Assembly (NCBI RefSeq): GCF_004010195.1
Contig: NC_057759.1
Coordinates: 6,923,853 to 6,987,852, forward strand
Origin: Chiloscyllium plagiosum
Taxonomy: Eukaryota
Direction of reading: 5' to 3'
Length of the DNA: 64,000 nucleotides
Positions 18,719 through 64,000 of this stretch are shown here, piece by piece. A model generated the notes under the pieces. That model was not told the origin of the DNA. It did no database searches and worked only from the letters and a program-made list of their open reading frames with translations. A program made the position numbers and the translations under genes. Position 1 is the stretch's first letter; each line of letters begins with the position of its first letter.

Positions 18719-18903
18719 CCATCCAAGAACTTGAGAGGACATAAGTTTTTCCAATGATATCGGAATAATGGGCTAATGAAAGAAACTGAATTCAATATAG
18801 ATATTGGAGTCCATTCAGATGAAGCATCTTATGTTCATTAAGTGTTAATTGAGAATTGACTATCAAAAGTGGGTTTTGAACCATAGAAAACTTACAGTCT
18901 TAG
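18719..18903 (+). pseudogene. Pseudo-exon paralogous to Ig domain 2 of the FCRL-like gene
   Basis: Translates GHKFFQ*YRNNGLMKETE...SDEASY...KC*LRIDYQKWVLNHRKLTVL vs functional GQKHFQWFRNNELIKETE...SDEAPYRCELTIYYRKWVSNNLTITVS; TGA at 18755-18757 replaces the Ig Trp, TAA at 18846-18848; donor GT at 18904. May extend 5' to about 18650. Confidence 0.9.
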
Positions 18904-21900
18904 GTTCATAATTCCTTTCTCTAGAGAGTTCTGGTGCATGTTTTGATCATTTTATGCCACTTCTGTCTAAGTTGCTTTTGACAGGACCCTCCAAGTGATA
19001 GACACTCGAGTCTAGGAGTAGGAATGCTTCCTCAATGACCTTCCCTCCATCATAAGGCCAGAAGTATGGATGCCTTCTCATGATTGCACAATATTCAGCA
19101 ACATTCACCAGTCTTTAGATACTGACGCAGTCTGTGTTCAAATGCAACAATGTCTTGACAATATCCAGGCTTGGGCGGACAAGTGGCAAATAACATTGCC
19201 ACCACACAATTTCCAGGTAATATCAATCAATAATAACGGGCAGTCTAACCATCACCCCTTTACATTCAATGGTGTCGCTATCACTGAAACCCCACTAACA
19301 ACATCTTGGGGTTTACCATTGACCAGAAACTTAACTGGGCCTGCCATATAAACACGTGGGCTACAAGAACAGATCAGAATCTAATAGTCCTGCTGCAAGC
19401 AAGTCAATCCTGACTGTCCAAATCTTGTCCACTATCTACAAGGCACAAGTCAGAAGTGCGCTGGAATAGTTCCACTTGCTTGCATTCGTGCAGCTCTAAC
19501 AACACTCGATAAGTTCAAAACTATCCAGGGTACCGTTCACAATCCTCTAAAACCACCAGAACTCAGTTGGCACCACATCCATAAAGATTCACCCCGTCCA
19601 TCACCAACACTCATTAGCAGCATTGTATACCATTTAAAAGATACAATGCAGAAATTAACCAAACATTCACCAAAGATGCTCAGCCAGTACCTTCCAAATC
19701 CAGCAGATACATGGGAACACCACTCCCTGCAATTTCCTCTCTAGGTCACTCACCATTCTCACTTGGAAATATATCAGTAATTCCTTCAGAGTCACTGGGA
19801 CAATATCTGGAATTCTCTCTCTTAGACCATTGGGATTCTGCATGTCACAAATGGACAGGAGCAGTTCATGAAGAGAGCTCACCACCACATCCTCAATAGT
19901 GGGCAACGAGGAACAGACAAGTAAAGGATGGCTAGCCAGTGATGCCCATGCCCTGGAGTGAATTTTTTTTAAAAAGAGTATGTTTTGCCAAATTAAGCCC
20001 ACTACCTGGAGTATTGTGTGTGCAGTTTGTGATTCCTTACCTGAGAAACGATGTTCTGGAGGGAGTGCAGCAATGGTTTCCTAGTCTAATTCCTGGGTTG
20101 GCAGTACTGATGGATGAAGACAGACTGGATTGTTTAGGACGATAGTCACTAGTAGAATGAGGAGGTGATCTGGGACAGAACTGCAAAAGTCGAACAGGAT
20201 ATATTAAATGACTATTTTGAGTCAATGTTTACTGATGAGAAAGAAAAGAAGGGCATAGAACTCAGAAGTAAATATTGATGCTTTAAAAATAGTTCACATT
20301 CGGGAAGAGTAAGTGCTGGAAGTGTAAGAAAAGGTAAAGGTAGATAAATAACCAGGACCAGATCAAGTGTGTCCATCGACGCTGTGGAAAGTAATGAAGA
20401 AAATTGTGGGGCTCCCAGCAGAAACATTTGTATCATCTATAAACATGTGTTAAGTACCGGAGTACTGGATGGTGGCTAATTTTGTGCCCTTGTTTAATAA
20501 AGTTTGTGTGGAGAGGCCCAGAAATAGAGAACATGTAAGTCTGACATGAATGATGGATAAGTTACTGGAGATGATTCTGAAAGAACATGCATTTGGAGAG
20601 GTATTGGTTGATTAGGCATGATCAGTATAAGTTTGTGTGAGGAAAGCTGTGTCTCTCAAACTTGATATTTTTTAAAATTTAAGTAACCAAAAAGATTGAT
20701 GACAGCAGAACATTAGACATTGTTCACTTGGACTTTAGGAAAATCATTGACAAAGTTCCATTTAGTAAACTAATTAGTAAAGTTCGATTACATGGGATTC
20801 AGGGTAAACTTGTCATTTGGATACAAAATTGGCTTTATGGTAGGAGACAGATTGTGCTGATTGGCTGCTGTTTTAGACTGGAGGCCTGTGACCCGCAGTG
20901 TTCCTAGGGGATTGGTGTTGGATCCACTTTTTTTTAATTACATGAACATATCGAAAGCATGGGTAGAAATTTTGAAGATGACACCAAAATTGTTGGACAG
21001 TTAAGAAAGTTTTACAAAGAGATCAGATCAATAGGTTCAATGGACAGAGGAGTAGCAGATGGAGTTTCATTTGGGTAAATGTGAGGTATTGCAATTTGGT
21101 AATACAAGCAAGGGCAGGATTTATACAATTAATAGTTGGGCTCTGGCCAGTTTTGAAGGACAGAGGCTGACCTAGGGGTCTCAGGTACATGGCCATTTTT
21201 AAAACTTGTGTCACTGGTAGAGATGGTAGTTTATATGGCATTTAGCACGCTTGCCTTCATTGCTGAGATTTTACAAGACATCGGTGAGACCTTTTCTGGA
21301 ATGCTGTGTGGTGTACAGGTCTCCACATTGCAGGAAGGATATTATTAAACTGGAGCGGGTTCGGAAAAGATTTAACAGAATGTTGCCAGGAAATGGCGTT
21401 TGGAGATGCAAAAATAGATTGGAAAGCCTAAGACCTTTTAGACTGGAGCATAGGGGGTTAAGTGGCAACTTCACTGAGGTTTCTAAAATCATGAGAGATA
21501 TCGATAAGGTGAGTAGCCAAGATGCTTTCATTTGCATAGAGGAGTTCACCACTGCAAGGTGTATTTTAAGAGGAGAGGAGAAAGATGTAGAAAGCACGTG
21601 AGGGGCAACTTTTTTTTAATGCAGTCGTAAGTGTGTCGAATGAACCACCAAAGGAAGTAGTGAATGCAGGTATCCTTGCAACACTTAAATGACACTTCTA
21701 GACGTTTATGAATATGAAACGTTTAGAGATATATCGTACATATATTGCAAACAGGTTGGACTAATTTAATTTAGAAACATGGTCAACGTGGGCTGGTTTG
21801 TTACTGTATGACTCTATGACTAGACTATTTCAAAGAAAAAAAAGCTCCCATTGACCAAAGGGAGATGGGAGTGTTCAATACCAGGGTGTCACATTTTAAA

Positions 21901-34762: not shown

Positions 34763-34949
34763 CACACAGATTCTTGCAGAGTTTGTCAGTCTTGCTCAGT
34801 CGCTCTGTGAGGATAGAGGCGCTTGAAGACTCTGCTAGCTTCAGGACTGTAACTTTTCGGGGAAGAATCCACACTTATCCCTCCATGACACGATTTGTTA
34901 TGTGCAATCATTATCTGGAATTTCACGTTCCATCAAACCAGCGGTGTAA
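34763..34949 (+). other. Candidate first non-coding exon (start unknown)
   Basis: Ends in overlapping donors GTAAGT at 34946 and 34950; directly follows the ETS motif. Confidence 0.4.
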
Positions 34950-37096: not shown

Positions 37097-37584
37097 TGCG
37101 TGTGTCTGTCCACGCATATATGTGTGTTTGTATAAGTGAATGTGTGTCTGTGTGTGCGTGTGTGTGTGTATGTATGTGCTTGTATGAGTGCTTGNNNNNN
37201 NNNNNNNNNNNNNNNNNNNNNNNNNNNNNNNNNNNNNNNNNNNNNNNNNNNNNNNNNNNNNNNNNNNNNNNNNNNNNNNNNNNNNNNNNNNNNNNNNNNN
37301 NNNNNNNNNNNNNNNNNNNNNNNNNNNNNNNNNNNNNNNNNNNNNNNNNNNNNNNNNNNNNNNNNNNNNNNNNNNNNNNNNNNNNNNNNNNNNNNNNNNN
37401 NNNNNNNNNNNNNNNNNNNNNNNNNNNNNNNNNNNNNNNNNNNNNNNNNNNNNNNNNNNNNNNNNNNNNNNNNNNNNNNNNNNNNNNNNNNNNNNNNNNN
37501 NNNNNNNNNNNNNNNNNNNNNNNNNNNNNNNNNNNNNNNNNNNNNNNNNNNNNNNNNNNNNNNNNNNNNNNNNNNNNNNNNNNN

Positions 37585-37660
<76 letters not shown>
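37097..37660. repeat. (TG)-rich tract, 390-N assembly gap (37195-37584) and (AG)n microsatellite (37585-37660)
   Basis: Direct reading. Confidence 0.95.
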
Positions 37661-37662
<2 letters not shown>

Positions 37663-37879
37663 GTTTCTTTAATCTTGAGGAACCAGTTGGACAACAGGCT
37701 AATCTCAATGGGATACTTTGCAAGGAGAAATTATGCATTAACAGTCTTTTAGAAAGTGTAACTATAATGTGACAGCATTTTTCATGAAGTCGAAGAGCCA
37801 AGTAGTTGAACCAGAAGCGAGGATCCGGAATTTACATTAAGAAATCTATGATGTGATAGGCACGAATTAGCAGGGATGG

Positions 37880-45492: not shown

Positions 45493-45523
45493 ATGTCGCA
45501 GATCTCCGTGCTTCTCATCCTCT
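45493..45523 (+). CDS. FCRL-like receptor, leader exon S1 coding part (MSQISVLLIL + 1 nt); exon probably starts at 45406
   Basis: ggaaATG start with a purine at -3, hydrophobic codons, 31 coding nt then a GTAAGT donor (phase 1); acceptor 'ctaatcttactgacttctgttacag' ends at 45405. Confidence 0.75.
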
Positions 45524-47092
45524 GTAAGTGTGTGTGACCGAGGAAACTTTTCCTGACAAACCTGTTTTGTTCTCCGATCACACGTGGTTACATTCTGCAG
45601 CATATTACCATGCACTTCCTTCTCAGTTCGTGGAAAGCAGGAGTTGATTACTGTGGCCAGCAAAAAAAACCAACTTTGCAGAAATCAGTAATGAAAGGAG
45701 TTGGGATCTTGGATGGTAGCATTTCCCGAGAGACAGAGAAAGAGAGAGAGAGAGATGGGGTGGGGGGTGGGGGGGTGGGAGGGGAGAAGAATGAACATTT
45801 CAGGTTATTATGATTTGTGAAATAATATTCAATCTGCTCTGAAATGGATACAACTTACACACACATGTGCACTATTCTCAGAAAATGTCAGGAGAATTTC
45901 AGAATCTCGCAAAGGGATGTATAATCTTCAATAATGTAGAGCCGATATATCTCACTGAGCAGTGAATGGAAATGCCATTTATTTTCCTCAACAATAGGAC
46001 ATTTAGCAGTCTGTTGCCTTGAGAGCTGGAGCGTTTCAGTGATGGTGAGAGATTAGATATAGTTGGGTTGTTTTCATTAGAGCAGAGGAGATTGAGAAGT
46101 GGGTTCGGGTTGGGGTGGGACATGATGTATAAATGATTAGGGGGATAGAGAGGGTAGACAGGTAAAAAGCCTTTCCCATTGATGGTGGGATCAGAACGGC
46201 TATGGGGTTCAGACGGAATGAATAGATTGAAGTTAAGGGGCAGGAGGTTTAGATGTGATCTGAGGCAAAGATGAGGGTGGTGGGGAATCTGGAATTCACT
46301 GCCTGTAAGGGAGCTTCGATGTGCACTTAGCGAAACTGAATCTATGTGCCAAGTGCTGGGAAAATGTGATTCGAGGAAAAGTCAGGTAATTGCTTTTGAC
46401 CGCACAGATTTGATGGGCTGAAAGATATTTTCTGCACTGTGGACCTCTCTGACTCTGAACCTAGATTGAAGATGGTCCTCTTGTGAAATAACTTTAAACA
46501 CAACGGAGTTTGTGTAAGCTCCTCGAAACTGTTCAGAGATGTTCTGAAAACAACCCTGCTGTCATTGTCGCCCCTTGTCTCTAAGCTAGAAGCTTTAGTG
46601 TTGAGGTTATTGATGGATCTTGACTGACTTTAGGTGTTTCTAAGAATTCTTCCAAGGCAATAAACGCAAAATCAGTGAACTGGATTTCTTTTGCAGTAAT
46701 CTTCCCAAACATAATTTATTTTTCAAATCTTAAAATTATGGGGACATTTAGTCTTTTCAGATAAATGACATAGGAATCTGAGCGCAGAGAAAACAGGAGG
46801 CGAAAATGAGTGGACAAGAAATACACAGAAAGGTACAAAGCAAAATTTGCTCTGTGTGAGATAAGGGCGAGAAAACAATAGGGTCGTCATGCAGTTCATA
46901 TCAATTCATATTTCTGCCTCCACATCAATAAGACTGAACAGTCAACAGTTTCCATTGAGTTACAGACAGGATATGTGCTATTTCTCTGTTGCTGCTCCAC
47001 TTACATTGCTTTGACATTGTCTTTACTTTGCTATTTCCAGGACACTGACAGACATAATGACATTTGCATTTCAATTCCCTTCTGTTTTCTAG

Positions 47093-47122
47093 TGAACGTT
47101 GCTCTCCGTGGGAAGACTCTAG
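47093..47122 (+). CDS. FCRL-like receptor, 30-nt leader mini-exon S2 ((L)NVALRGKTL(G))
   Basis: Acceptor 'ttcccttctgttttctag', donor 'TAG|gtagga'; phase 1-1 and joins S1 to Ig domain 1 in frame: MSQISVLLILLNVALRGKTLGFGSP... Confidence 0.75.
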
Positions 47123-47400
47123 GTAGGAGTCAACTACAAATTTCTTGAATAATCGTTTGGGAACCTGAAGTCGTGCTGTGCATATCTTTTGAGCGACCTT
47201 TCCCTAACATGCAACAATTGGGACATTATCCCTGTCTTCCTCGATTGGAGTTGTAATCATTTTGGCAGGGTGAACAGAAGATTAGTGCATTATTTACATG
47301 GTGATAAATGGTGATAAACTGCAGAGAGCTGCAACACAAAAGGGATTTGGTTGGGAGTGGACGGTGTTTGAACGATCTTGTGCATGAATCACAGAAAGCT

Positions 47401-47796
47401 GTTCTTATGTCGCCATAGCCTTACCAAATCATAGGGACCTATATTCCAGAACAACAAATTGGAATATGGATGGTACTGTCTCTTTTTGTTTTGATGGACG
47501 TCAGGGTTAAACGGTTCCTTGTACAGATCAGAACTAACTATGATAAGTATTTTTACAAATATAAATGGGCGTTAACTTAATTTCTGGGCTTAACTTCCAT
47601 AATAAGAGATAGAACAATCATTAGAGAGGATCTATTGGTGGCGATTTAACCTGAGGGTTACCAGACCTCAAACGAGGGAAGAGTTTGAGAAGGAAACTCC
47701 TTCATGGTAACCTCGAAATGAGAATTGAACCCACGTTGTTGGCATTACACTGTTCTGTAGACCAACAAACTAGCCAACTAAGATAAATCGATTCCT
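47401..47796 (-). mobile_element. tRNA-derived SINE (not HE1) inserted in a CR1, with a 10-bp TSD
   Basis: ACAGAAAGCT at 47391-47400 and 47797-47806; reverse-strand B box 'gggttcaattctc'; related fragment at ~15035-15145. Confidence 0.7.
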
Positions 47797-49279
47797 ACAG
47801 AAAGCTCGTTAATCAGGATGGGAGAAGGAAATGTTGATCCTTATTTAAAGGGAGTATGAGTATAAGAATAGGGAAGTCTTTCTGAAACTGTCCAAAGGGC
47901 TGTGGAGACCAGACCTGGAGCATTGTGAGCAGTTTTGCTTCCCTTATTTGCCGATAGAGAGAGTTTCATGAGAGGCAGTTCAGAGAAGGTTCACTGGGAT
48001 GATCTCTAGCATGCAGGGCTTCGCTTATGGACAAAGGGTAAACAGAGTGGACTCTACTCACAGGAGTTTGGAGGAATGTGAGGTGATCGCACTGAAACAT
48101 ACAGAGGATCAATGCTGAGAGGATTTCCCCCTTCATGGGACTGTCTGGGAGTAGAGGACATGGTCTCAGAATAAATGGGCACCAGTTGAAGGCTGACATG
48201 GGGAGGAATTTCTTCTCCCAGAAGGTTGTGAGTCCTTCGAATTCCTCGTCACGGAGAGCTGTGGGGGAGGGGTGAAGAAGGTGGTGGTGGCAGAGTCACT
48301 GTATATATGGAAGGCCGAGATAGATTGATAATTGTCATTTGGGGAATGAAGGGAATAGGCAGCAAAGTGAGGGATATTAGAACAGCCACAATCTAATTAG
48401 ATGATGCAGCAGGTTTGAGGGATTGAATGACCTGCTTGTATTCTTATAGTCTTAAATATGAGTAGGAAGGCAGTGTTAATGATTGATGAACTCATAGATA
48501 AGATTGGTCAGACAGTAAATGAAGTTTTTAATGGAATTGGTACAGGGCATTCATTTAAAAAGATTTGGGAAGTTAAACATAAAATGCCATATTACAAATC
48601 CACCAGCAATATTGAAGGTGATGGCCCTGACAGACAATGGCAGTGAGTGTTGACACAATATATTCCAAAACAACAATGTGGAAAATGGACGGTGCTGTCT
48701 CTGTTTTTTGGATAGGACGTGGGTATTAAACAGTTCCTTGTACAGTTTAGAACTTGCTATTGTACGCATTATTATAATTATAAATGGGCATTAACTTCAG
48801 TTCTGGGCTTAACTTCCATAATAAGAGATCAGAACACTTCACAATGTAGCCAACAAGGAGGACAGTGAAGGAGAATAATAGAGGGAAACATGGACAGACT
48901 ATATTGGGCAGGTACACGAGAAGTTAAATTTAATTCGCTCATGAGAACGGATGTTGCTGGTTGGGTCCAGCATTTATTGCCGCCTCCCTGGCTGCTACCT
49001 TGAGAAGGTGGTAGTGAATGCTTTCTTGAATTACTGTAGTCCCAATGGATAGAGCTAAAATGCGCTTGGAGAGGGATTTCCAGGAATTTGTCTGTATTTG
49101 ACACTGAATGTACAGCCAATTTTCCAAGTCGGGATGGTGAATGGCTCGGAAGGGAACCTGCAGGGGATGGTGTCCCCATGTACCTGAATGCAAATGGGGA
49201 TGTGTTTGAGGAGCTAAGATGAATTTCTGCAGTGGTTCTTATAGACCGTAGACACTGCTGCTACTCCTAAAGATCAAGG

Positions 49280-50495
49280 ACTTTTCTTTGCGTTTATCAC
49301 CAGGAGAAGGGAAAGATATTGAATGATCATTTTGAGTTAGTTTTGCTATGGAGTAAGAAATAAAATCGAGAGAATACAGAGTAATAAACTCTGATGTTTC
49401 TAAAACAGTTCCCATTACAGAAGAGAATGTTCGGGATGTCTTAGAGAATACAAAGGTGGATAAATCTCCTGAACCTGATTCAATGTATGGCAGAGTGTTG
49501 TGGAAAATAAAGAGGTTAATTACAAGGTCTCTAGCAGAAATATTTGCACCATATATGACGATGGGTCAGGTGCCTGATGAATGGAGGGTGGCTCATGCTG
49601 TACCTTCGTTTAAGAAAATTTGTAAGCAGAAACTGGGAAACTCTAGACTTGTGAATCTGACTGCAGTTATCGGTAAATTGTTGGAGGCGATTCTAGAAGA
49701 AAGGATATGTGGTCATTTGGAGAGGCATCAATTGATTAGGGATCATCAGCATAGTTTTGTGTGAGAAAAAAATCATCACAAATTTGACTGAGTTTTCTGA
49801 AGAAGCTAACAAACAGACTGATGAGGACAGTGCTATTGATGTTGTTTATTTTCATGTCAGTAAGCCTTTGACAAGGTTCAGTATGGCAGAATAATTATCA
49901 ACGTTACATCACATAAGATTCAGGGTGAGCTTCCCAACTGGATACATAGTTATCTTTCTAACAGAAGATAGAGTGTCACGGTAGAAAGTTGCTTTTCAGA
50001 CTGGAGGCATGTCACCAGCGGCGTTCCACAAGGATCGGTTCCAAATCCTCTTTTGTTTATCATTTATATGAATGGTTTGGATGAGAATATAGAAGGAATG
50101 ATTAGCTTGTTTGCAGATGACAATAAAACCGGCGGCATAGTCGAAGTGAATAAGGTTTTCCAAGATTACAAACAAATCTTGAATAAATGGGTCAATGGGC
50201 TGAAAAGTAGCAGATATGGAGGACAGATTTACAGACTCGGAGGCACATTTTTACGGTGAGAGGAGAGAGTTTGAAAAAAGATGAAAGAGGCTACCTTTTC
50301 TCCACGGGTGGTTTTTTGACTCTGAGATGAATTTCCTAAGGAAGTAGTAGGAGTGGGTCAAATTATGTTTAAAAGACATTTGGATAGATACATTAATCGG
50401 AAATGGAGGGACTTGTTTAGTTTGGGATTATGTTCGGCATGGACTGGTTGGACCGAAGGGTGTATTTACATGCTGTAAGACTCTGTGACTTTATA
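49280..50495 (+). mobile_element. CR1-clade LINE RT fragment
   Basis: ORF 49456-49764 'DKSPEPD...VPDEWRVAHAVPSFKK...VNLTAVIGKLLE'; ORF 50053-50259 'SLFADDNK'. Confidence 0.9.
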
Positions 50496-50699
50496 CTGAG
50501 TATCGCTGGTGGAGGGAGTGGATATTTAGATGTGGTGCCAATCAAATAGGGACGGTCTTGTCCCTGGATTGCATGGAGCTTTTGGAGTATTGATGGATCT
50601 CCAGCAATTTAGGCCAATGGGGAGTACTCCATCACACTCCTCAGTTGTGCCTTTTCCATGGTGGACAGGCTTTTGGAGAGAATCAGGAGGTGAGTTACT

Positions 50700-50985
50700 T
50701 GCTGCAGTGCTGCTGCCTCATAGTGCCAGGACCCCAGCTTCGATACTCCCCCTCGGGCTACTGTCTGATGGAGTCTCCTTTGGGTGCTCCGGCTCCTTCC
50801 ACAATTCAAAGATGAGCAGGTTAGGTGAATTAGCCATGCTAAATTGCCCAAAGTGTTCAAAGATGTGTAATTTTGGTGCTTTAGTCCGGGGTAAGTATAG
50901 GGTAATCGGTTAGGGGAATGGGTGGGATACCTTCCGAAGGTTAGTGTGGACTTGTTGGCCCAAATGACCTAATTCCACATTATAC
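50700..50985 (+). mobile_element. HE1-type SINE (nested)
   Basis: 'ggttaggtgaattagccatgctaaattgccc' core and 'gtgtggacttgttgg' tail. Confidence 0.75.
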
Positions 50986-51799
50986 ATGATGATAATCCGT
51001 GCAGTTAAATCATCCAAACAGTAAATTAACTGATGTCTGTCAGTGATTGGCACTTTGAAAATCGAACCATACCAAGCTAATTGTTCTCATCACAGAAATA
51101 ATGCATCAAGTACATAGCCGCACTTGGATTATTGCATCCAATTCTAATCACATCATTTCGGGACGAATGCAGAAGCTCTGGAAAGGATCCAGAGGACATT
51201 TAGTAGGATGTTGCCTGGTATGGATGGAAGGTCTTATGAGGGCAGGCTAAGGGAGTGGAGGCTTCTTTCGTTAGAGGGAAGCAGGTTGAGAGATAACTTA
51301 ACTCAGACATATAAGTTAATCAGAGGGTTAGGTAGGGTGAACGGATGGAGATGGCTGGCACGAAGGGACATAGCTTTAAAGTGATGGGTGGAAGATGTAC
51401 GACAGATGTCACAGGTAGTTTCTTTACTCGGAGAGTAGTAGGAGAGTGGAACTCCCTGCTGCAACAGGAGCAAACTCGCCAACATTAAGTGCATTTAAAT
51501 AGTCATTGGATAAACATATTGATGAAAATGGAACTTTGTTGGATTGATGGGCTTCAGGTTGGTTCCACAGTTCAGCACTATATCAAGGGCTAATGTTGTA
51601 TATTCTATGCTCCACGTAATCCAGGATTAGATGCCACCAAAATTCAGCAAATTCAAACCTTTTTGTCTTGACTGCATCGTTTGATCATTAGCCAATTTGA
51701 ACTGGGCTATTGAGGTTGAACTGCGTTGCATTTATTGCAGTGAGAGTTCAAAATATACAATGATTGGATTAACCTTTCCGCTTCTATATCTTTCTTCAG

Positions 51800-52045
51800 G
51801 TTTTGGAAGTCCTGTGCTTTACATATACCCCTCAAGTAGGTTTGTAAAAGAAGGAGAGACTTTAAAATTGGAATGTGGGGAAGATAATGCAAGAGCTGTT
51901 TATTGGTACAAAAATGAAGAGCAATTCACTCAAACACAGAGCAATGTTTATGAAATACTCGCGAACAGTGAAACTGGCGGATCTTATTCCTGCAAAAGAC
52001 ATTACGAATTGTTCAAGAGTGCACCTGTTGTAATTGTCATCATTT
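51800..52045 (+). CDS. FCRL-like receptor, Ig domain 1 (C2-type)
   Basis: Acceptor 'ctttcttcag', donor GTAAGT at 52046, 246 nt, phase 1-1; GFGSPVLYIYP..VKEGETLKLEC..VYWYKN..GGSYSC..SAPVVIVI with canonical Cys-Trp-Cys. Confidence 0.9.
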
Positions 52046-52741
52046 GTAAGTGAACTTTTTAAAAAATTCCTTCACAGGACGAGGGTGTCACTGGCTAGGC
52101 CAGTATTTATTGCTCATCCCAGAGAGCAGGTAAGAGTCAGCCACTTAGCTGTGTAGTCCAGTTTGACTCTGATTTCCACTGAAACACTGCGTGCAAGTGG
52201 AGTGCGTATTGATGTAATGATTTTTCTGAGTTCCCAGATCACTTTCAACCAAACACGCATGTTTCAGCATGAATAAGTTACGTAAGGTTAGGTATCTGAA
52301 ATGGGAGTTGGTAATTTCAGATGAGGAGAGGTTGAGTAGGTTGGGCCTGCATACATTCGAGCTTAGAAGAATGAGAAGCCACTTATTGAATGTACTTAGA
52401 GGGACCTGACAAGGTGAGATGAGGAGACAGGCTGTTTCCCCTTACCTTGGAGAGTCTGGAACCAGACGGGCTTCGTCTCAGAATGAGAGGGCTGCACATT
52501 AAAGACAGAGAGGAGGAGGAATTTATTCTCTCGAAAGGCAGTAAATCTATGGAATTCATTACTGCAGAGGGCTTTCGATGTTGGGCCATTCACACCCATC
52601 ACCCTCAGTGTCAAGCAATTCTCTACGTCTCCTGCCTTTCATTTTAAACACCCCCCCACCCCTTGTTATTTCTCTTCAACTACAGGGAACACCTGCTCCC
52701 CATCTCCCACTGTCCTTATACTTCATAATCTTATGCATATC

Positions 52742-53030
52742 AGGTGGCATGGTGGCTTAGTGGTTAGCACTGTTGCCTCATAGCGTCAGAAATTCGGCTT
52801 TGATTCAATTGACAAGCGACTGAAAGTGTGGAGTTTGTACATTCTCCCTATGCCTGCGTGGGTTTCTTCTGGGTGCTCAGGTTTACTTTCCCAAGCCAAA
52901 ACCGTGCAGTTTAGGTGCATCAGTCTCGGGTAAATGTGGAGTTATAGGGGAATAGATTTTTACAGTTACTCTTCGGAGGGTCAGTATGGAATTGTTGGGC
53001 CGAAGGTCCTGTTTCCACACATTAGGGATT
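52742..53030 (+). mobile_element. HE1-type SINE
   Basis: 'ggtggcatggtggcttagtggttagcactg' head; 'ttgttgggccgaaggtcctgtttccacac' tail. Confidence 0.85.
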
Positions 53031-53326
53031 CTACGATACCCTCTCAGCCTTCTCTGCTTCAAAGAAAACAACCTGATCTTATCCAGACTCTCTTCATTGC
53101 TGCAATTTTCCCCATCCCAGGCAACATCCTGGTGAATCTCCTCTGCACGCCCTCCAGTGCAATCACATGCTTCCTATAGTTCAGAGGCTGGGACTATGCA
53201 CAGTGCTCCAGGTGAGGCCTCACCAAAGTCCTGTGCAGCTCCTACATCACCTCCTTTTGTTAGAACTGTATTTTGTTGTGTTTAAATCTCATTTGGTGTC
53301 CACCTTTTGTCGCATTTCTTTTGCAG

Positions 53327-53593
53327 TTTCCAAAGAAACTCTAAGTCTGGAAGCTAAGTGGCCACATGTTCTGAGGTACGAGAAGATTGTAATGAACTGC
53401 CGTACGCCATACCAGACCTGGTGGGGACAAAAGCATTTCCAGTGGTTTCGGAATAATGAGTTGATAAAAGAAACGGAAGATGATTCATTCACCATAGAAA
53501 GTGCAGAATATTCAGATGAAGCACCTTATCGATGTGAATTAACAATTTACTATAGAAAGTGGGTTTCGAACAATCTAACCATCACAGTATCAG
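53327..53593 (+). CDS. FCRL-like receptor, Ig domain 2
   Basis: Acceptor 'catttcttttgcag', donor CAG|gttggt, 267 nt, phase 1-1; ..IVMNC..FQWFRNN..FTIESAEYSDEAPYRC..SNNLTITVS. Confidence 0.9.
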
Positions 53594-53669
53594 GTTGGTC
53601 ATTCCATTGTTTAGTTAATGCCAGTGAATGATTTGATGATTATATGCTGCATCTGTGTAAGCTGCTTTT

Positions 53670-55880
53670 GACAGAACCCTCCCAGTGATGGATACTCGAG
53701 GATAGGAGCAGGATGCTTAATCACTGACCTTCCCTCCATCATAAGATCAAAAGTGGGGATGTTCACTGATGATTGCACAATGTTCAGCATCATTCTCCAC
53801 TCTTCCGATATTGATGCAGTCCGTGTTCAAATGAACAAAGTCTATATAATATCCAGAGTTGGTATGACGAGTGGCAAGTAACATCTGTGCCACACAAATG
53901 CCTAAAACGGTCATGAATAATAGTAGTCTCTCTAACCGTCACCCACTAGACATTCAATGATGTTGCCATTGTCAACATTCTAGGGTTTCCCACAGACCAG
54001 AAAAAAATATCAACTGGAATGAGCATATAAACACAGCAGCTCCAAGAGCAGGTCAGAGGCTGGGAATTCAACAGTAAATAACTTACTTCCTGACTCCTTG
54101 AAGCCTGTCGACCATCAACAAAGCACCAGTCAGGACTGTGATAGAGTACTTCCCACTTGCCTGGATGGATGCAGCTCCAACATGACTCGAGAAGCTCGAT
54201 ACTATCCAGGGACAAGGCCGCCTCCGCTTGATTGGTACAACAACCAATACCTCCACCTTCATTTCTCAGTAGGAGTAGTGTGTAAAATCGATACGATGCA
54301 CTGCAGAAAGTCACCAAAGATCCTCAAACAGAATTTCCCAAACTCAGACCACTTTCATCTATAAGCTCAAGAACAACAGATATATGGGAATACCACCCTT
54401 CAACAAGTAACAATCTGAGGCACTCACCATCCTGACGTAGAAATAATTCAGCCATTCCTTCAATGTCACTGAGCCGAAATCGTGGAAATCCCTCCCAAAC
54501 AGCTTTGAGGAATAACCTTCAGCTAATGGCTCGTAGTGGCTCAAAAAGATAGCTCACCACCAGCTTCTCGAGGAGGCAACTTGGGAGAGACAATAAAATA
54601 TTAGACAGCCAGAAACACCAATGGCCCATGAGTGAATGGAAAATGTTTTGCTGTAATTGTCCATGGTGCAACCACACCCTGGATTTTTGTGTGTGCTATA
54701 TGGATCCCCATATCTGACGAAGTATTGTTTTGTCTCATTAGCTTGATTGAATTTGTAAACTGAGTAACTAAAAAGAGTGATGAAAACAGAGTGTTTGACA
54801 TTGTTGATTTGGACTTCAGTGAAGGTTTCATGTGGTAGAACAATTAGAAACACTCTGTCACTTAGGATTCAGGGAGAGCTTGCCAGTTGGATACAGGTTC
54901 GTCTTCATGGTAGGCAACAGTACGTGATGATGGGATGCACGTAACCAGCGGTGTTCAATAGGGATCGGTGATGCGTCCACTTTATGTAAATGACTTGGAT
55001 GAGAAAAAAATGATGCATTTTTTGCACATTTGCAGATGTCACACAAACTGGTGGTAACATCGATAATGAAGAAGGTTATAAAGATTATGAAGACATCTTG
55101 ATCAATTGGGTCAATGGGCTAAGGAATGGCAGATGGCGTTTAATTTGGATAAATGTGAGTTATTGCATTTTGGTAATGCAAACAATGACAGAACTTGTGC
55201 AGTTCGGGGTAATGCCCTTGGTAGTGCTGCAGGGCATAGGGACCTAAAGTTTCAGGTACATAATTCTCTGAAGTAGGCCGGGTGTTTAAGAAGCACGCTT
55301 TGCTTCATTGCTCAGACTCTTAAGTATACGAGTTGGATGTTATGTTGAGGTCTTAAAGAGCATTGGAATGCGGTATGCAGTTCTGGAAGGACATTATTCA
55401 ACTGGATATTGTTCAGAAAATATTTTTCATAATGTTACTATGAATGGAAGGTTTGAGATCTAAAAATAGACTGAAAAGTCGGTGACTTTTTTCCACTGAA
55501 GTGTAGCAGGTTGAGTGGTGACTTTATTAAAGTTCATAAACAATGAGAGGCATAGATAAGGTAACTGACGAGGGTCTTTTTCACTCGGGTGAAGAAGTCC
55601 AAAACTAAGGGGCATATTTTTAACATGAAAGGTGAAGGATTTAAGAAGGACACGGGGGCAACTGAGAATAGTTCATGTGTGGATTGAACTGTTAGAGCAA
55701 GTAATTGATACATGTACAGGTAGATTTTCTTTTCAGAGAGATTTGGGTAAGTTCATGAATAGGGAAGGTTTGGAGGGATATGGCTCAAATGCAAGCAGGT
55801 GAGACAAGTTTAGTTAGGAAACATGGTTGGCATGGACTGGTTGGACTGAACAGTTTGTTCAGTGTAGTGTGTCTCTAGGA
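53670..55880 (+). mobile_element. L2-like 3' region (53670-54640) followed by a CR1-clade LINE 3' half (54740-55880)
   Basis: 'gttcactgatgattgcacaatg' (FADD-like) and CR1 3' motifs; same arrangement as 18983-21820. Confidence 0.8.
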
Positions 55881-56664
55881 CTGGACAGGGTTAATGCAGA
55901 AAGGATGTACCTGATGACTGGGGTGGCGTTTGCAGGAAAACACAGGGGAGTCCAGAACCAGGGGTTGACAGTCTAAATGAGACTGGATTAGACTGAGATG
56001 AGGAGAAATGCCTTTTGCAGAGATTTGTATCCTTGCCTTCTATGTCAACACATCAATTCCTATTATTATCCAAATAATTTATCTGCATCAACTATACTTT
56101 ATGATCGCTATTGCCGACTGAATGCTTGAATCTGAGGTGTGAGTATATCATATAATATCAGTAAGACCTGATACGGATATATCTTGTTGATCGTGCACGA
56201 TTGTGCTGCTATAATATCCTTTGTCCTTGCCTTTTACACTTACAACTTATTAAATATTCGTATCACTCCTCGTATTGTATCTGCCCATTTGCTTCTCTTC
56301 ATCTCCACTCACATTTGATGTCAGCTGAGAGAGAAGTATGTTCTAACAGGTATTACGTAACACACTAAGACCATTAAAGTGGCTGAATGACCTCCTGCTG
56401 TTCTGTTTTCTTATGGTCTTAAAGTAACTCCTCAGTTAAGGAGAACTAAGCTACAGCCAATACTCAGGTAAGTTAGAAATAAATCAACATAATCAATTTA
56501 TTTATTCAGACCGGATTGAAGAACATATCGGAGGTGGGTTGACGGAACTATTACTTGAAAATACATTTTGTAAAGACTGTGATAGTGAATATTTTCAGAG
56601 TACGTTCTAGTGTAACGACAGCCTGTGGTAAGCTGTAATGATGCAACTTTGCTTTCAATCTTAA

Positions 56665-56922
56665 ATGGAAATGTGACTTTCCATGTTGTCCCTGTTACAC
56701 CTTTGGAAGGAGAGTCAGTGGAACTGAAATATCGGCACATATATAATTATTGGTATGAAAGGGAATTTATCTTTTATAAAAATGGCAAGAATATTCATTC
56801 AGTGAAGTCCACAACACCCGAATATTCGTATCACATTAAAGTAAACAGAACTGAAGACAGTGGATGGTACAATTGCATCATTGACTGGGAAAAATCACGA
56901 GAAGTTTTGATTCAGGTTCAAG
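56665..56922 (+). pseudogene. FCRL-like receptor, Ig domain 3 exon, apparently defective (acceptor AA instead of AG; first Cys replaced by Tyr)
   Basis: Open frame (D)GNVTFHVVPVTPLEGESVELKY..FIFYKNG..EDSGWYNC..SREVLIQVQ with donor AAG|gtacgt; the pyrimidine tract ends 'tcttAA' at 56663-56664; TAT at 56730-56732 where TGT is expected. Confidence 0.7.
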
Positions 56923-56979
56923 GTACGTATCCAATTTTGCACAATGTGCACAAGACAGCCAATTCTTCCTAGATCTTAA

Positions 56980-58575
56980 GTAGTCAATGGAATGGATGTA
57001 ACAAAGTTTGCAGAAGACATGGAGCTTGTTGGGAAGATGAGTGATGAGGATGACATAACTGGCATACAATGTGGGAGAAATGTGAGATTTTGTGATCTGG
57101 CAGGAAGACTACAGGAACTGAATATATTTAAATTATGAAAGAACGTAGAAAGCTACAGAACTGATGGATTGGAGAGTCTCATTTGTGAAACAGAAAAACT
57201 GAGTGTCCAAGTTTTTGGTGTGTCATAGGGAAGGCAAATGGTTTTTATTTTGAAGACAATGGAGTTTAAAACTCAGGAGGTTATACTAACCCTCCACAAA
57301 GCAATTGTCAGACTGCAGAAGAACGTTATGATCAGTTTTTGGGAAACTTATCTCAAGAAAGATGGACTGGGCATTGGAGGCAGTTCAGAGAAGAATCAGT
57401 CAGCTGGTCCCGGGCATGGAGGGACTATCCTCACTGAAGTTTAAAAAATGAGAAGCAAACTTATTGAAGATTCTTAGATGGACTTGACAAAGGAGATGAG
57501 GAGAAAGGTCGTTTCCCCTGTCTGGGAGATTCTGCAATCAGAGAGGTATTGACATAGAATAATGGGGTGTCACTAATTGAAGATGGAGGTGAGGAGAAAT
57601 TCCTTCTCTCTGAGGGAAGTCATTTTGTGGAATTCTTTACCACAAAAGGCTATTGTGGCAGGGTTGTTAAGTACTTTCCAGGTTGAGTGAGAGAATTTTA
57701 TTTTAAATCAGAGTAATTATGGTGAATAAACGGCAACAAATTGGAGTTGAGGGTGATCGAATCAGACGTAATTTTTTTGAATTGGAGTGCAGACTCAATG
57801 GGCTGAATAGCCTACTTCTGTCGCTACATCTTATGCTCGTACAATCTATTAAAAGCAATCTGAGCCTCTTAGAATTAATTTAAAGCTTTCTTAAATAAGG
57901 TGACCAATGTGATACACAGTATTGTTGTTGGTCTTCACATGGTGCCACACATGATTGAAGTGATAATCCTGGAGGTAATTGATAACATTCCATTAGGTCG
58001 CTATTTGTACTGGTACATTCTCTGAACAGAGAGGTGAACGCAGGTTCACAGAGAAAAGGAGAGAGAGAATGGGACAAGATCCGATAGAAACTTTGGGGGA
58101 TAAAAGTTGGTATTTGGGTTGTTCCCATCCCAGGATTCCTCAGAAATATAAGAGGCTTGTGTTTAGGGCGAGGCTGAATTGGGTCTTAGGAGACTTAGGG
58201 GTAAATTTATAGATGTTTATAGAGTCATGAGCGGCAGAGATAAGGTGGATCACCAAAGTCTTTTCCCGAGAGTAGGGTATTCCAAAACTAGAGGGCATAG
58301 GTTTAAAGTGAGGGGGAAAATTGGAAAGGGATCTGAAGGGCAACTTTCTCACCCAGAAAGTGGTGTGTGCAAGGAATAAACTGCCAGAGAAAGTGTTGGA
58401 GGTTGGGACAATTGCAGCATTAAAGACTTTTGATCAGCACATGGACCGGAAGGGTTTAGAGGCACATGGACAAAATGCAGGCAAATGGGATTAGGTAATT
58501 TTAGGAAACTTGGTAGGCATGGACGGGTTGGGCTGAAGGGTCAGTTACCATACTCTGTGCTTGCATGATTCCATA
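56980..58575 (+). mobile_element. CR1-clade LINE fragments in the D3-D4 intron
   Basis: ORF 57238-57444 'MEFKTQEVILTLHKAIVR'; ORF 58179-58379 'RRLRGKFIDVYRVM..SLFPRVGYSKTRGHRFKV'. Confidence 0.8.
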
Positions 58576-58753
58576 ATTCAGGTGGCATTGAGACAGAATT
58601 TCAAATTTGCGAAGTAAGAGAAAGATAAAATTTTACCCTCTCCTCTGTCTTTAGTCAGAAAATGCTCACATTCTTTGCCCCGGACACTATTGTGCCTTTT
58701 ACTCTGTGAAAATAACAGTTGAATGACGATCCCGATTGTGTGTTACATTCCAG

Positions 58754-59035
58754 AACGCTTTGCCAAGCCCGTGCTGATGGTGGAACCGGCAGCTGAAGTA
58801 TTCGAGGGGCTCCATCTCACACTGACTTGCACTGTCCAGGCGGCACGGCCCTCCATCCGGCTTCACTACCTATTTTACAGAGGCAGTGACGTCCTGGAGG
58901 CTCCGCCTGATCATGGTAACGTGTACACCATCAACGCAGCGGCTACAGACGTTTCCGGAAATTACAGCTGTGAAGCAATCGAGATGTTTTTCAGTCTAAG
59001 GAAGAGGAGCGAAGGCATTCACATTTCCGTTAAAC
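58754..59035 (+). CDS. FCRL-like receptor, Ig domain 4
   Basis: Acceptor 'ttacattccag', donor AAC|gtaact, 282 nt, phase 1-1; ERFAKPVLMVEP..VFEGLHLTLTC..LHYLFYR..SGNYSCEA..KRSEGIHISVK, a pattern typical of FCRL membrane-proximal domains. Confidence 0.9.
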
Positions 59036-59811
59036 GTAACTATTTGTCGCTATCGCAGATTCTGCAGTGCAAATTAAAGACTCTTCAACCCATTCAGTCA
59101 GAAACCGCCACCTCACTATTGTCCAATCCCATGTCCCCAGTACATGGCCCCGGAGCCTTGGCATTGCGAGTGCACACCTAAATACTCTCCAATGTTATGA
59201 GCGTTTCTGGCTCTCCCATACTTACAGGAAGTGAGCTGCAGATCCCCTGAGTGAAAATGTTTTTCATCTTATTCCCTCTAAACTTCCAGCCCCTTAGCCT
59301 CAACCATTGTCCAACCCCTCTGTTTATTGATCTCATCAAGGGGAAATATTTATTACTGTCAACCCTGTTTATGCCCCCTCATTATTTTATATATCTTAAT
59401 CATGACTCCCACAGTCGTCTCAATCTACTCTACTCAAAGGTAAACAAACCCAGTCTTATACAATCCCTTTCCATCATTGAAACTCTCCTGCCTCTAAGGC
59501 AACATCCTGAAAAATCTCCCTCTGTCCCTCTCCCAGTGTTATCCCATCTCTCTTACAATGTGAAGTCCAGAACCGGGTACAATTCTCTCTCTGCAGTTGT
59601 AAATATTTATTCTAAATGTGATCGCGATTGTCACCAAATCTGATCTTGAGCTAACGCAATGCTAACTGCCTTGATTGGATTTGAAAGATTGTTAGAAGTC
59701 TCCCATACTGACCCATTCTCTGGATTTACTTGATCTCTTTCTGCTCACTGAGTTTTCCCAAGTCCAGGCACTCTGCAGAAACAAACACAAACATGTTCTT
59801 CTGCTTTCCAG

Positions 59812-60084
59812 AGACGTTCACCATCCCTAAGTTGACCGTGCATCCTGAGGGACAAGTGTTTGATGGCCAATGGGTTAAACTGGTTTGCTCAGTTGAAGCA
59901 AATATGTTCCAAGCTTCCTTGCAGTACAGCTTTTACAGAAATGGGGTCCCTCTCCAGTCTCCATCCGACCACAGCGATTACATCTCTGAGTCACCTCGTC
60001 CAGCAGACTCGGGTACTTACCATTGTGAAGTCACGGACGGGAAGGTGTGGAAATGCAGTAATCAGCTCCATTTGTCCATCAGAC
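59812..60084 (+). CDS. FCRL-like receptor, Ig domain 5
   Basis: Acceptor 'ttcttctgctttccag', donor GAC|gtgagt, 273 nt, phase 1-1; QTFTIPKLTVHP..VFDGQWVKLVC..LQYSFYRNG..ADSGTYHCEV..SNQLHLSIR. Confidence 0.9.
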
Positions 60085-62544: not shown

Positions 62545-64000
62545 AGTTTGCTTGCTGAGCTGGAAGGTTTGTTTTCAGATGTTTCATCACCATTCTAACT
62601 ATCATCATCAGTGTGCCTCTAGTTAAGCACTGGTGTTATGTCCACTTTCTATTTATGTGTTTAGTTTTCTTTGGGTGGGTAAACTTAGAACATAGAACAT
62701 TACAGCACAGTACAGGCCCTTCGGCCATTGATGTTGCACCAATTTGTGGAACCAATCTGAAGCCCATCAAACCTACACTTTTCCATTTTCATACATGTGT
62801 TTAGCCTATGACCAATTAAATGTCCTTAAAGTTGCCGAGTCTACTACCGTTGTAGACAGGCCGTTCCATGTCTCTACTACTCTGAGTAAAGAAACTAACT
62901 CTGACATCTGTTCTATACCTATCGCCCCTCAATTTAAAGTTATGCCGCTCGTGCTGGCTATCACCATCCGAGGAAAAGGGATCTCACTGTCCAGCCTTTC
63001 ACTTTAATGAAAACAGTCTCACATCTCTCAACATTTCTACATAAAACCTCCTCTCCATACCAGGCAACACCCTAATAAATCTCCTCTGAACTCTTTTAAA
63101 AGCTTCCACGTTCTTCCCATATTGCGAAGATCAGAACTGTGCGCAATTCTCAAAGTGTGTCCACCCCAGAGTTTTGTACAGCTGCAGCATGACCTCATGG
63201 CTCTGAAACTCGGTCCCTCTACAAACGCACCATATGCCTTCTTAACAACGTTATCAACCAGTGTGACAACTTTCATGAATCAATGTACATGGGCACTGAG
63301 ACCTTCCTACCCATCTACACTTCCAAGAATCTTGCCATTAGCCCAGGACTCTTCACTCATGTTACTCCTTCCAATGTAAATCATCTTCCACTTTACCCCA
63401 TTAAACTCCATTTGCCACCTCTCAGCCAGCTCTGCAGTGTATCTGTGTCCCTCTGTAACCCAAAACTTCCTTCTTCATTGTCCACAAATCTACCGACCTT
63501 ACTAACCCATTCTTCTACGCTCTCATCCAGGTCATTTACAAAAATGACAAAACTCATTGACCTCAAAACAGATCCTTGCGGTACACCACAAGTAATTGAA
63601 CTCCAGGATGAACATTTCCCACCAACCATCACCCTCTGTCTTCTTTCAGCTAGACAATTTCTGATCCAAACCGTGTAATCACCCTCAATCCCATGCCTCC
63701 GTATTTTGTGCAATAGCCTACATAGGTGATGTAATTTATTCCTCTTTGCCTCAAAGGATGGTAGCTGAGGTCCCGATCGATGTGTTTATTGAAAGACATC
63801 CAGCTGAAATGCCAAGGTTTTAGGAATTCTCGTGCGTGTCTCGGTTTGGCATGTTCGTGGATGGATGTTTATCCCAGTCAAAGTGGCTTTCTTCTTCGTC
63901 AGTGTGTAAGGATAATTAGTGAGAGTGGGCCATGTCTTTTTGTGGCTAACTGATGTTCGTGTATCCTGGTGGCTAGTTTACTGCCTGTTTGTCTGAAATA
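62545..64000 (-). mobile_element. Penelope-like element (GIY-YIG C-terminus and pLTR with a degenerate hammerhead), split by a CR1 insertion
   Basis: Reverse strand from 64000 reads 'YFRQTGSKLATRIHEHQLATKRH...HFDW'; CTGATGA...GAAAC-ATC motif at 62575-62614. Confidence 0.8.
62685..63722 (-). mobile_element. CR1-clade LINE 3' half
   Basis: ORF 63393-63713 'WIRNCLAERRQRVMV..GVPQGSVL..FVNDLD'; the tail reads 'agaacatagaacat' on the + strand. Confidence 0.9.

Follow-up and report, generated by a model that had tools for sequence, protein, structure and literature searches.

The stretch of DNA analysed here (the window) comprises 64,000 nucleotides (nt) of contig NC_057759.1 of the shark Chiloscyllium plagiosum (positions 6,923,853 to 6,987,852 of the forward strand), and the gene under study lies on its plus strand at window positions 45493-60084. 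A preliminary description made from the sequence alone had placed here a leader and five immunoglobulin (Ig) exons, D1 to D5, spliced into one open frame for an Fc receptor-like (FCRL-like) receptor of a cartilaginous fish. We find that the gene is spliced in a shorter form, leader-D2-D4-D5 and onward, predicted to encode a type I receptor with five Ig domains and three immunoreceptor tyrosine-based inhibitory motifs (ITIMs), and we hold with good, if less than full, confidence that this receptor likely belongs to the FcR/FCRL family and has an inhibitory role in shark B cells.

The leader is divided between exon S1 (45493-45523, 31 nt counted from the ATG) and the mini-exon S2 (47093-47122, 30 nt), and is followed on the same strand by the Ig exons D1 (51800-52045), D2 (53327-53593), D3 (56665-56922), D4 (58754-59035) and D5 (59812-60084). 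The symmetry claimed for these exons is real: all five are in phase 1 at either end and have Pfam Ig matches with E values no higher than 0.001, three of the five passing a gathering cut-off. Joined on paper, S1, S2 and D1-D5 also give the open frames that had been described, of 1387 nt with D3 included and 1129 nt without it. The gene corresponds to C. plagiosum RefSeq proteins XP_043539729.1-XP_043539735.1 (seven accessions, six distinct protein sequences), in which D2 is identical (100%), and whose isoforms are inconsistently named as HSPG-like, Fc receptor-like 5 (FCRL5) and FcgammaRI-like. This match, together with the profile calls given below, upholds the assignment to an FCRL-like gene of a cartilaginous fish. 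The automatic RefSeq annotation gives the gene, but D1 and D3 are not marked there as silent exons.

Contigs were drawn from three public runs of two studies (contig runs X3, X4 and X5, labels distinct from those of RefSeq isoforms X1-X6); none of these is registered as RNA, and the presence of GT-AG joints indicates that all three contain spliced sequence. The joints considered are the best 15 of 27, and the sequence differences 40 of 62. GT-AG joints S1-S2 (45523 to 47093), S2-D2, D2-D4 and D4-D5 were present in all three runs, with S2 spliced straight to D2 and D4 joined to both D2 and D5; past 60084 the loose ends match the next RefSeq exon in every run, such that D5 splices on to another Ig exon beyond the window. 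No joint into D1 or D3 was found among the best 15 of 27, the 1387-nt and 1129-nt forms were both missing among them, and neither D1 nor D3 is included in any of the seven RefSeq models. Coverage of D3 comes from unspliced contigs alone, at depths of 5.75, 8 and 6.18 in the three runs vs. 48.9, 14.5 and 25.3 for D2. The single open frame of the preliminary description therefore exists on paper and is not the form seen, and for D1 and D3 the co-transcription on which that description had staked its reading is contradicted by the joints listed for all three runs and by all seven models.

The two skipped exons differ in how they are damaged. The acceptor of D3 reads AA instead of AG (56663-56664), and no change at this site is listed for run X5, in which a contig spans the acceptor; in runs X3 and X4 a change could sit among the 22 further differences. 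Five alternative in-frame AG acceptors near D3 were considered and rejected, as the two upstream hit a stop and the three downstream clip the first strand, and none of the five is used among the best 15 of 27 joints. The first cysteine position of D3 (56731) reads Tyr in the assembly and, through A>G, Cys in all three contig runs, and the Tyr is therefore particular to the assembly. D1 has an open frame and canonical AG/GT ends in the assembly and is skipped nonetheless; a 471-nt deletion (51973-52443), seen as a non-GT-AG joint in contig runs X3 and X4 with none listed for run X5, takes out its 3' part, including the second cysteine and the donor site. Since no listed joint and no RefSeq model includes these exons, and given the AA acceptor and the deletion allele, D1 and D3 are likely pseudo-exons. 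A precedent, by analogy only, is exon 3 of lineage III KIR genes, which is skipped, in some cases despite intact splice sites (PMC6288254). Across 49689-52640, unspliced contigs reach a depth of ~35 in run X3, near exon depth, and ~9-12 in runs X4 and X5; run X3 may thus include transcripts that keep an intron or start internally.

RefSeq isoform X2, which like X4 opens with S1 and which contains S2, has 630 residues and consists of the leader, D2, D4 and D5, two further Ig domains and a membrane helix, with a tail of ~110 residues at its end; the last two Ig domains, helix and tail are known from RefSeq models, their exons lying beyond the window. D2 is the N-terminal domain of the expressed receptor. 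The AlphaFold model has five Ig folds, a helix at residues 494-519 and a disordered tail, with a mean predicted local distance difference test score (pLDDT) of 74.3. RefSeq model P0011 is that of a type I membrane protein with a tyrosine-motif tail: helix 494-519 holds no charged residue, and the tail carries ITIM-consensus motifs at Y550, Y568 and Y604 as well as a terminal YxN, a putative Grb2-type docking motif, at Y624. The transmembrane and signalling exons that the preliminary description had proposed to seek downstream are thus accounted for in the RefSeq model, and because the membrane helix is uncharged and is followed by three ITIMs, signalling is likely inhibitory. The membrane-proximal Ig domain (P0011 residues 393-491) is common to paddlefish, amphibian, turtle and kiwi FCRL-named proteins and is not found in FCRL3 of otter or tree shrew; possibly this is the D6 subtype that PMC2413239 calls Xenopus-specific.

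At least five C. plagiosum paralogues stand in tandem on one contig of 8,079,144 bases. Named by domain type, from distal (a, b, c) to proximal (d to g), the gene under study reads b-d-e-f-g, in which D2 is type b, D4 type d and D5 type e; the others read a-b-c-d-d-e-f-g, a-b-d-e-f-g, a-b-c-d-e-f-g and a-c-d-e-f, and the copies of the family differ in the distal domains that they carry. The skipped D1 and D3 are of types a and c. Mean pairwise identity among the five paralogues is 0.51, 0.63 and 0.60 for types a, b and c, and 0.69-0.80 for types d-g, in agreement with the earlier statement that D1-D3 are the more divergent domains. Within type b, column entropy over nine carpet-shark domains is 1.14 in the BC loop and 1.40 in the FG loop vs. 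0.68 elsewhere, and both loops hold aromatic residues private to the gene under study, as placed in D2 by the predicted structure model. The aromatic motifs reported for D1-D3 are present, with these exons ranking 12th, 6th and 3rd in aromatic fraction among 185 scored Ig domains (D4 108th, D5 70th); the picture of three aromatic distal domains holds for the sequence and fails for the product, with D1 and D3 skipped in the transcripts seen. Among the 40 of 62 differences considered, five of the six coding ones in the expressed exons are non-synonymous, too few to argue selection. One difference in run X5 (53430 A>C) replaces Gln with His in D2, at a BC loop position beside two tryptophans.

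Named relatives were found in the sharks Hemiscyllium, Stegostoma, Rhincodon, Scyliorhinus, Mustelus, Carcharodon, Cetorhinus, Heterodontus and Heptranchias and in the rays Narcine, Pristis and Mobula; no chimaera was among the named matches, 20 of the 144 new representatives carrying names. In a set of 32 shark-clade proteins picked for their tails (29 named, three unnamed), an ITIM was present in 31, a terminal YxN in 28 and an immunoreceptor tyrosine-based activation motif (ITAM) in none, and no activating member, whether by an ITAM tail or by a central charged residue in the helix, was seen among the 32. Several of the paralogues are named PECAM-like by NCBI.

A sequence search of the PDB with the full model gave 211 bits for FCRL5, 71 for FcgammaRI, 63 for contactin and 63 for CEA. 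Searched singly, D2, D4 and D5 each returned FcgammaR/FCRL first, with FcgammaRII domain 1 as the best match of D2; D1 returned phage Ig-like proteins and then FcepsilonRI, and D3 had no significant match in the PDB. Furthermore, an unbiased search returned FCRL-named proteins, in most of which the domains stand in the same order, from paddlefish, frog, caecilian, salamander, turtle and kiwi. Domain profiles built from non-shark proteins only were then applied to shark domains: type b was called FCRL D1 in 7 of 8 cases, type c (intact paralogue domains) FCRL D2 in 6 of 9, type d FCRL D3 in 8 of 8, type e FCRL D3 in 7 of 7, and type g the non-mammalian membrane-proximal FCRL domain in 5 of 5 (mean 77 bits vs. 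41 for PECAM D6), and the order of the FCRL-called shark types is the FCRL domain order. In the window itself, D2 scored 46.1 bits on the FCRL D1 profile vs. 26.6 on CD22, and D4 and D5 are of FCRL D3 type (D4 of the FCRL/FcgammaRI kind), so that PDB and profiles both confirm the FCRL proximal pattern attributed to them. Held-out controls were called correctly in 19 of 21 cases (paddlefish 5/5, otter 5/5, CD22 5/5, frog PECAM 4/6, its D4 and D5 being called FCRL), and the profile calls were nearly unchanged by adding frog PECAM. Seven of eight FCRL tails from bony vertebrates end in a YxN motif, and none of three PECAM tails does. Concatenated trees place shark, FCRL and PECAM proteins in one clade (support 99/96 and 99/98), with CD22 and CEACAM outside, and the three-domain tree joins shark and FCRL at 85/83.

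Other Ig families were also considered. CD22/Siglec and CEACAM were rejected, as the model has no V-set domain and both fall outside in both concatenated trees, and the PECAM1 domain set was rejected with type f alone best on a PECAM profile. KIR/LILR reached 22 bits with D4 in the PDB vs. 49, and D3 types are present in the shark gene. The reference set was without named LITRs, and to our knowledge teleost LITRs lack the D3-D5 domain types. The two-exon signal peptide and the single Ig domain per phase-1 exon, which serve as a family criterion in PMC2413239, are both present, a feature not unique to the FcR/FCRL family. Pairwise typing against few references was too noisy, and Foldseek was non-discriminating, with top matches to the five-domain model at 14% identity and ~30 Å root-mean-square deviation and FcgammaRI having the highest listed identity (26-27%).

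A number of results weigh against an FCRL placement. Type f was called PECAM D6 in 7 of 7 cases (59 bits vs. 51 for FCRL D4, second) and type a was called CD22 in 4 of 6, with the D1 of the window scoring 35.7 bits on CD22 vs. 34.4 on FCRL D1; D3 as assembled, nearest to FCRL D2 by type, is a tie (32.0 bits for FCRL D2 vs. 32.1 for PECAM D1). The alternative of shark with PECAM was not rejected by the approximately unbiased (AU) test (p=0.14), the five-domain tree including frog PECAM is a trichotomy, and a tree of single domains, built on 88 columns from the window exons and 96 of the 189 domains cut out, puts PECAM D4 among the shark d/e domains at 87/82 without fixing the remaining order. 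Queries based on shark sequences supplied the reference proteins, whose names are automatic, and the PECAM profiles are shallower than the FCRL ones. The leader, at 31/30 nt, does not follow the 30/21-bp rule of mammalian FCRL1-6 and FcgammaRI; PMC2413239 gives the 21-nt rule for mammalian FCRL1-6 and for no more than a fraction of the Xenopus XFL. The phylogenetic check proposed in the preliminary description thus came out in part, with profiles mostly FCRL and CD22/CEACAM outside, and with FCRL and PECAM1 not separated in the trees. Taken together, the sequence comparisons suggest that the gene is likely a member of the broad FcR/FCRL family and not an orthologue of any mammalian FCRL.

The non-mammalian FCRL-named proteins of paddlefish (XP_041087892.1), caecilian (XP_030043362.1), turtle (XP_039369031.1), kiwi (XP_025934861.1) and frog (XP_063803088.1) are 24-28% identical to the shark protein (alignment A2) and share with the shark family the D1-D2-D3-(D4/5)-proximal order, the uncharged helix, the ITIMs and, mostly, the terminal YxN; the shark family differs in having at its N-terminus a further domain, type a, whose assignment to FCRL is not clear. 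Xenopus XFL share the two-exon leader and the shuffling of domains among tandem copies (PMC2413239). They differ in that about half of them are activating and that members with an NxxR helix are found among these, a kind absent among the 32 shark-clade proteins. Human FCRL5, FCRL3 and FcgammaRI are the best PDB matches and have D1- and D3-type domains, and FCRL3 and FCRL5 resemble the shark gene in ITIM tail and B-cell expression (on the shark side probable, through a link by name). Human FCRL5, however, uses for IgG a D2-type domain that is missing from the shark expressed form; S2 has 30 nt vs. 21 in these human genes; the mammalian FCRL3 checked, of otter and tree shrew, is without the proximal domain of the shark family. 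PECAM1 of teleosts and frog is likewise a multi-C2 Ig receptor with an ITIM, belongs to the same broad clade and supplies in D6 the best match of type f, but its D1-D3 are unlike the shark N-terminal domains, its tails lack the terminal YxN (0 of 3) and it has no g-type proximal domain. The lineage III KIR pseudo-exon 3 is similar, as an analogy, in being an Ig exon kept in the DNA and constitutively skipped (PMC6288254); KIR are of another family, and the shark gene has two silenced exons, one with its acceptor lost and one also with a segregating deletion.

Expression data come from the marker lists of a bamboo shark study (PMC11372145, supplement file 3). The locus LOC122544517, whose description is identical to the name of RefSeq isoform X3 of the gene under study, stands in row 23 of the B-cell markers (log2 fold change 4.75; 43.1% vs. 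3.7%) and, among the rows listed, under no cell type but B cells, endothelial cells included. The link of this locus to the gene is by name and neighbouring locus number only, which weakens the B-cell assignment. Row 14 of the same list, which also includes lyn and inpp5d, is LOC122544513; its name, 'PECAM-like X5', is shared by isoforms of two paralogues. The gene is thus probably expressed in leukocytes, namely B cells, and of the earlier claim of an expanded, fast-evolving leukocyte receptor family, the tandem family and the faster distal domains stand, while leukocyte expression is probable through the name link. Two other 'PECAM-like' loci appear in that file, LOC122562260 under T and B cells and LOC122562262 under erythrocytes; LOC122544480, a myeloid marker of IGSF1-like name, has a number close to that of LOC122544517.

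By inference from mammalian FCRL2-5, the BC and FG loops of D2, the N-terminal domain, which are variable and aromatic, would engage a ligand, the ITIMs would be phosphorylated by Lyn or another Src-family kinase, and recruitment of SHP-1/2 or SHIP-1 would damp B-cell receptor signalling; human FCRL2-5 recruit SHP-1, SHP-2 and SHIP-1 and repress B-cell receptor signalling (PMC10562807). Exon silencing of D1 and D3 would have altered the ligand-facing end in the gene under study, much as in exon 3 of lineage III KIR. According to PMC12757038, human FCRL5 contacts IgG where D1 meets D2, within D2 and within D3, binding is lost on mutation of the D1/D2 interface or of D2, and mouse FCRL5 has no Fc binding. 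The FCRL5 D1-D2 contacts listed there are mostly polar or aliphatic, with the aromatic ones in D3, and the preliminary statement that FcR/FCRL contacts use aromatic distal loops was therefore too general. The Fc-receptor module D1-D2(-D3) is not in the expressed shark protein, the FCRL D2-type exon (D3 of the window), whose type bears most of the FCRL5 contacts, being skipped, and because of this skipping, antibody binding in the FCRL5/FcgammaR mode is, by analogy, unlikely for the gene under study. Paralogues P0014 and P0028, in whose models the D1-D2-D3 module is kept, are by sequence the better Ig-binding candidates; that some member of the cluster binds Ig directly we consider rather doubtful. 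Families of this kind have been proposed to track pathogens or major histocompatibility complex (MHC) molecules (PMC2413239), and the variable loops and shuffled architectures agree with that proposal.

The reading of the gene as an inhibitory FcR/FCRL member on B cells has two functional or phylogenetic rivals. The receptor might bind shark antibody (IgM, IgW or IgNAR) and so serve antibody feedback, inhibiting B cells as FcgammaRIIB or FCRL4/5 do. Its nearest solved structures by sequence are indeed Ig receptors, human FCRL3, 4 and 5 bind Ig (PMC10562807), and probable B-cell expression and the ITIM tail would suit such a role; yet the D2-type exon needed in FCRL5 binding is skipped, the mouse FCRL5 of PMC12757038 provides a case of an FCRL5 that does not bind Fc, Ig binding is argued in PMC2413239 to be a derived mammalian trait, and variation of the BC and FG loops among paralogues suits diverse ligands better than one conserved Fc, and we regard this function as unlikely. 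A place in the PECAM1 lineage, or in a group that predates the FCRL/PECAM1 split, would make the protein an inhibitory adhesion receptor, possibly self-binding, and not an FCRL. The NCBI names of several paralogues, the affinity of type f to PECAM D6, the joint clade with its open inner order and the proposal that PECAM1 derives from an FCRL5-like gene (PMC7916592) all speak for this, but FCRL profiles take types b, c, d, e and g while PECAM D1-D3 take none, held-out frog PECAM D1-D3 and D6 are recognised as PECAM, the tail motif is FCRL-like, the name-matched gene is listed under B cells and not endothelial cells among the marker rows, and tandem copies with shuffled domains resemble amphibian XFL; such a lineage is accordingly distinctly improbable in our judgement.

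Two further rivals concern the gene product. That the full D1-D5 form, or one with D1, D2, D4 and D5, is a real product presenting three aromatic distal domains would agree with the two open frames, with the canonical ends of D1 in the assembly and with the D3 cysteine in all three runs, by which the coding sequence of D3 is not decayed; moreover, the 12 weaker joints beyond the best 15 may leave room for rare inclusion of D1 or D3, a point against a strictly shortened transcript. Set against these are the AA acceptor of D3, at which no change is listed for the run X5 contig, the partial deletion of D1 in two of three runs, and the lack of a D1 or D3 joint among the best 15 of 27 and of either exon in the RefSeq models, which together make this form very improbable. 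Finally, the silencing of two exons, the segregating deletion and the relic at 18719-18990 might mark a decaying copy on its way to a pseudogene, but in all three runs the expressed exons are undamaged and splicing joins them in frame, the tail motifs are the same as in the paralogues and B-cell expression is probably strong, and we give this idea hardly any credence. The inhibitory, leader-D2-D4-D5-onward receptor of the FcR/FCRL family remains our preferred reading.

Elsewhere in the window, an alternative first coding exon, that of RefSeq isoform X3, lies on the plus strand at 34885-34945, 10.5 kb upstream of S1; it is a 100% tblastn match to residues 1-20 of P0002, is followed by a GT donor and is by eye unlike a signal peptide. 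A decayed D2-type exon with its downstream intron lies at 18719-18990, also on the plus strand; it contains stops and a frameshift, is 70% identical to D2 and its flank over 281 nt (E 6e-35), is also found by tblastn, and is a relic of another family copy. Three RefSeq isoforms, X1, X5 and X6, begin in intron sequence immediately 5' of D2 (53167-53326), and since part of this segment resembles a repeat at 63110-63211 (53%), their N-termini are likely artefacts. An assembly gap at ~37190-37670 adjoins a GA microsatellite, with 390 N in the window, and no neighbouring gene was identified within the 64 kb for comparison with the SLAM/CD2-family genes, IGSF9, DUSP23 and TAGLN2, linkage to which is a criterion of the FcR/FCRL family.

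Akula et al. 2014 (PMC4016189) report no FCRL in sharks and place the origin of the family at the root of bony fishes, and a 2026 review (PMC13337447) repeats this absence and asks how sharks manage without Fc receptors. The bamboo shark study of 2024 (PMC11372145) mentions fcrl3, fcrl5 and fcgr1a-like in B cells, in the parts concerned without phylogenetic analysis, term searches found no FcR/FCRL passages in PMC4279169, PMC12227049 or the supplement of PMC3964593, and no study analysing a shark FCRL family was found in the literature searched, which lies outside most subscription journals. The gene is already annotated, and the literature searched describes neither the family to which it belongs nor its silent exons nor its likely inhibitory role in B cells; novelty is tempered in that RefSeq already labels many shark genes Fc receptor-like.

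For shark immunology, the results suggest that the names HSPG-like and PECAM-like conceal two top B-cell markers. The cluster provides a short list of named genes to test on shark Ig classes, in which the gene under study is the weaker candidate because its D2-type domain is skipped. A bolder and tentative view, one we think improbable as a whole, is that the last common ancestor of sharks and bony vertebrates already had an array of B-cell receptors of the FCRL family, with D1-D2-D3, an ITIM tail and the proximal domain that the mammalian FCRL3 checked lack, that a cluster member, most likely a paralogue keeping D1-D2-D3, is a receptor for shark IgM, IgW or IgNAR, and that other copies re-target by silencing distal exons. 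FCRLs in sharks would contradict the absence stated in PMC4016189 and PMC13337447, and if the family is FCRL, its origin would move back to the jawed-vertebrate ancestor, alongside immunoglobulin.

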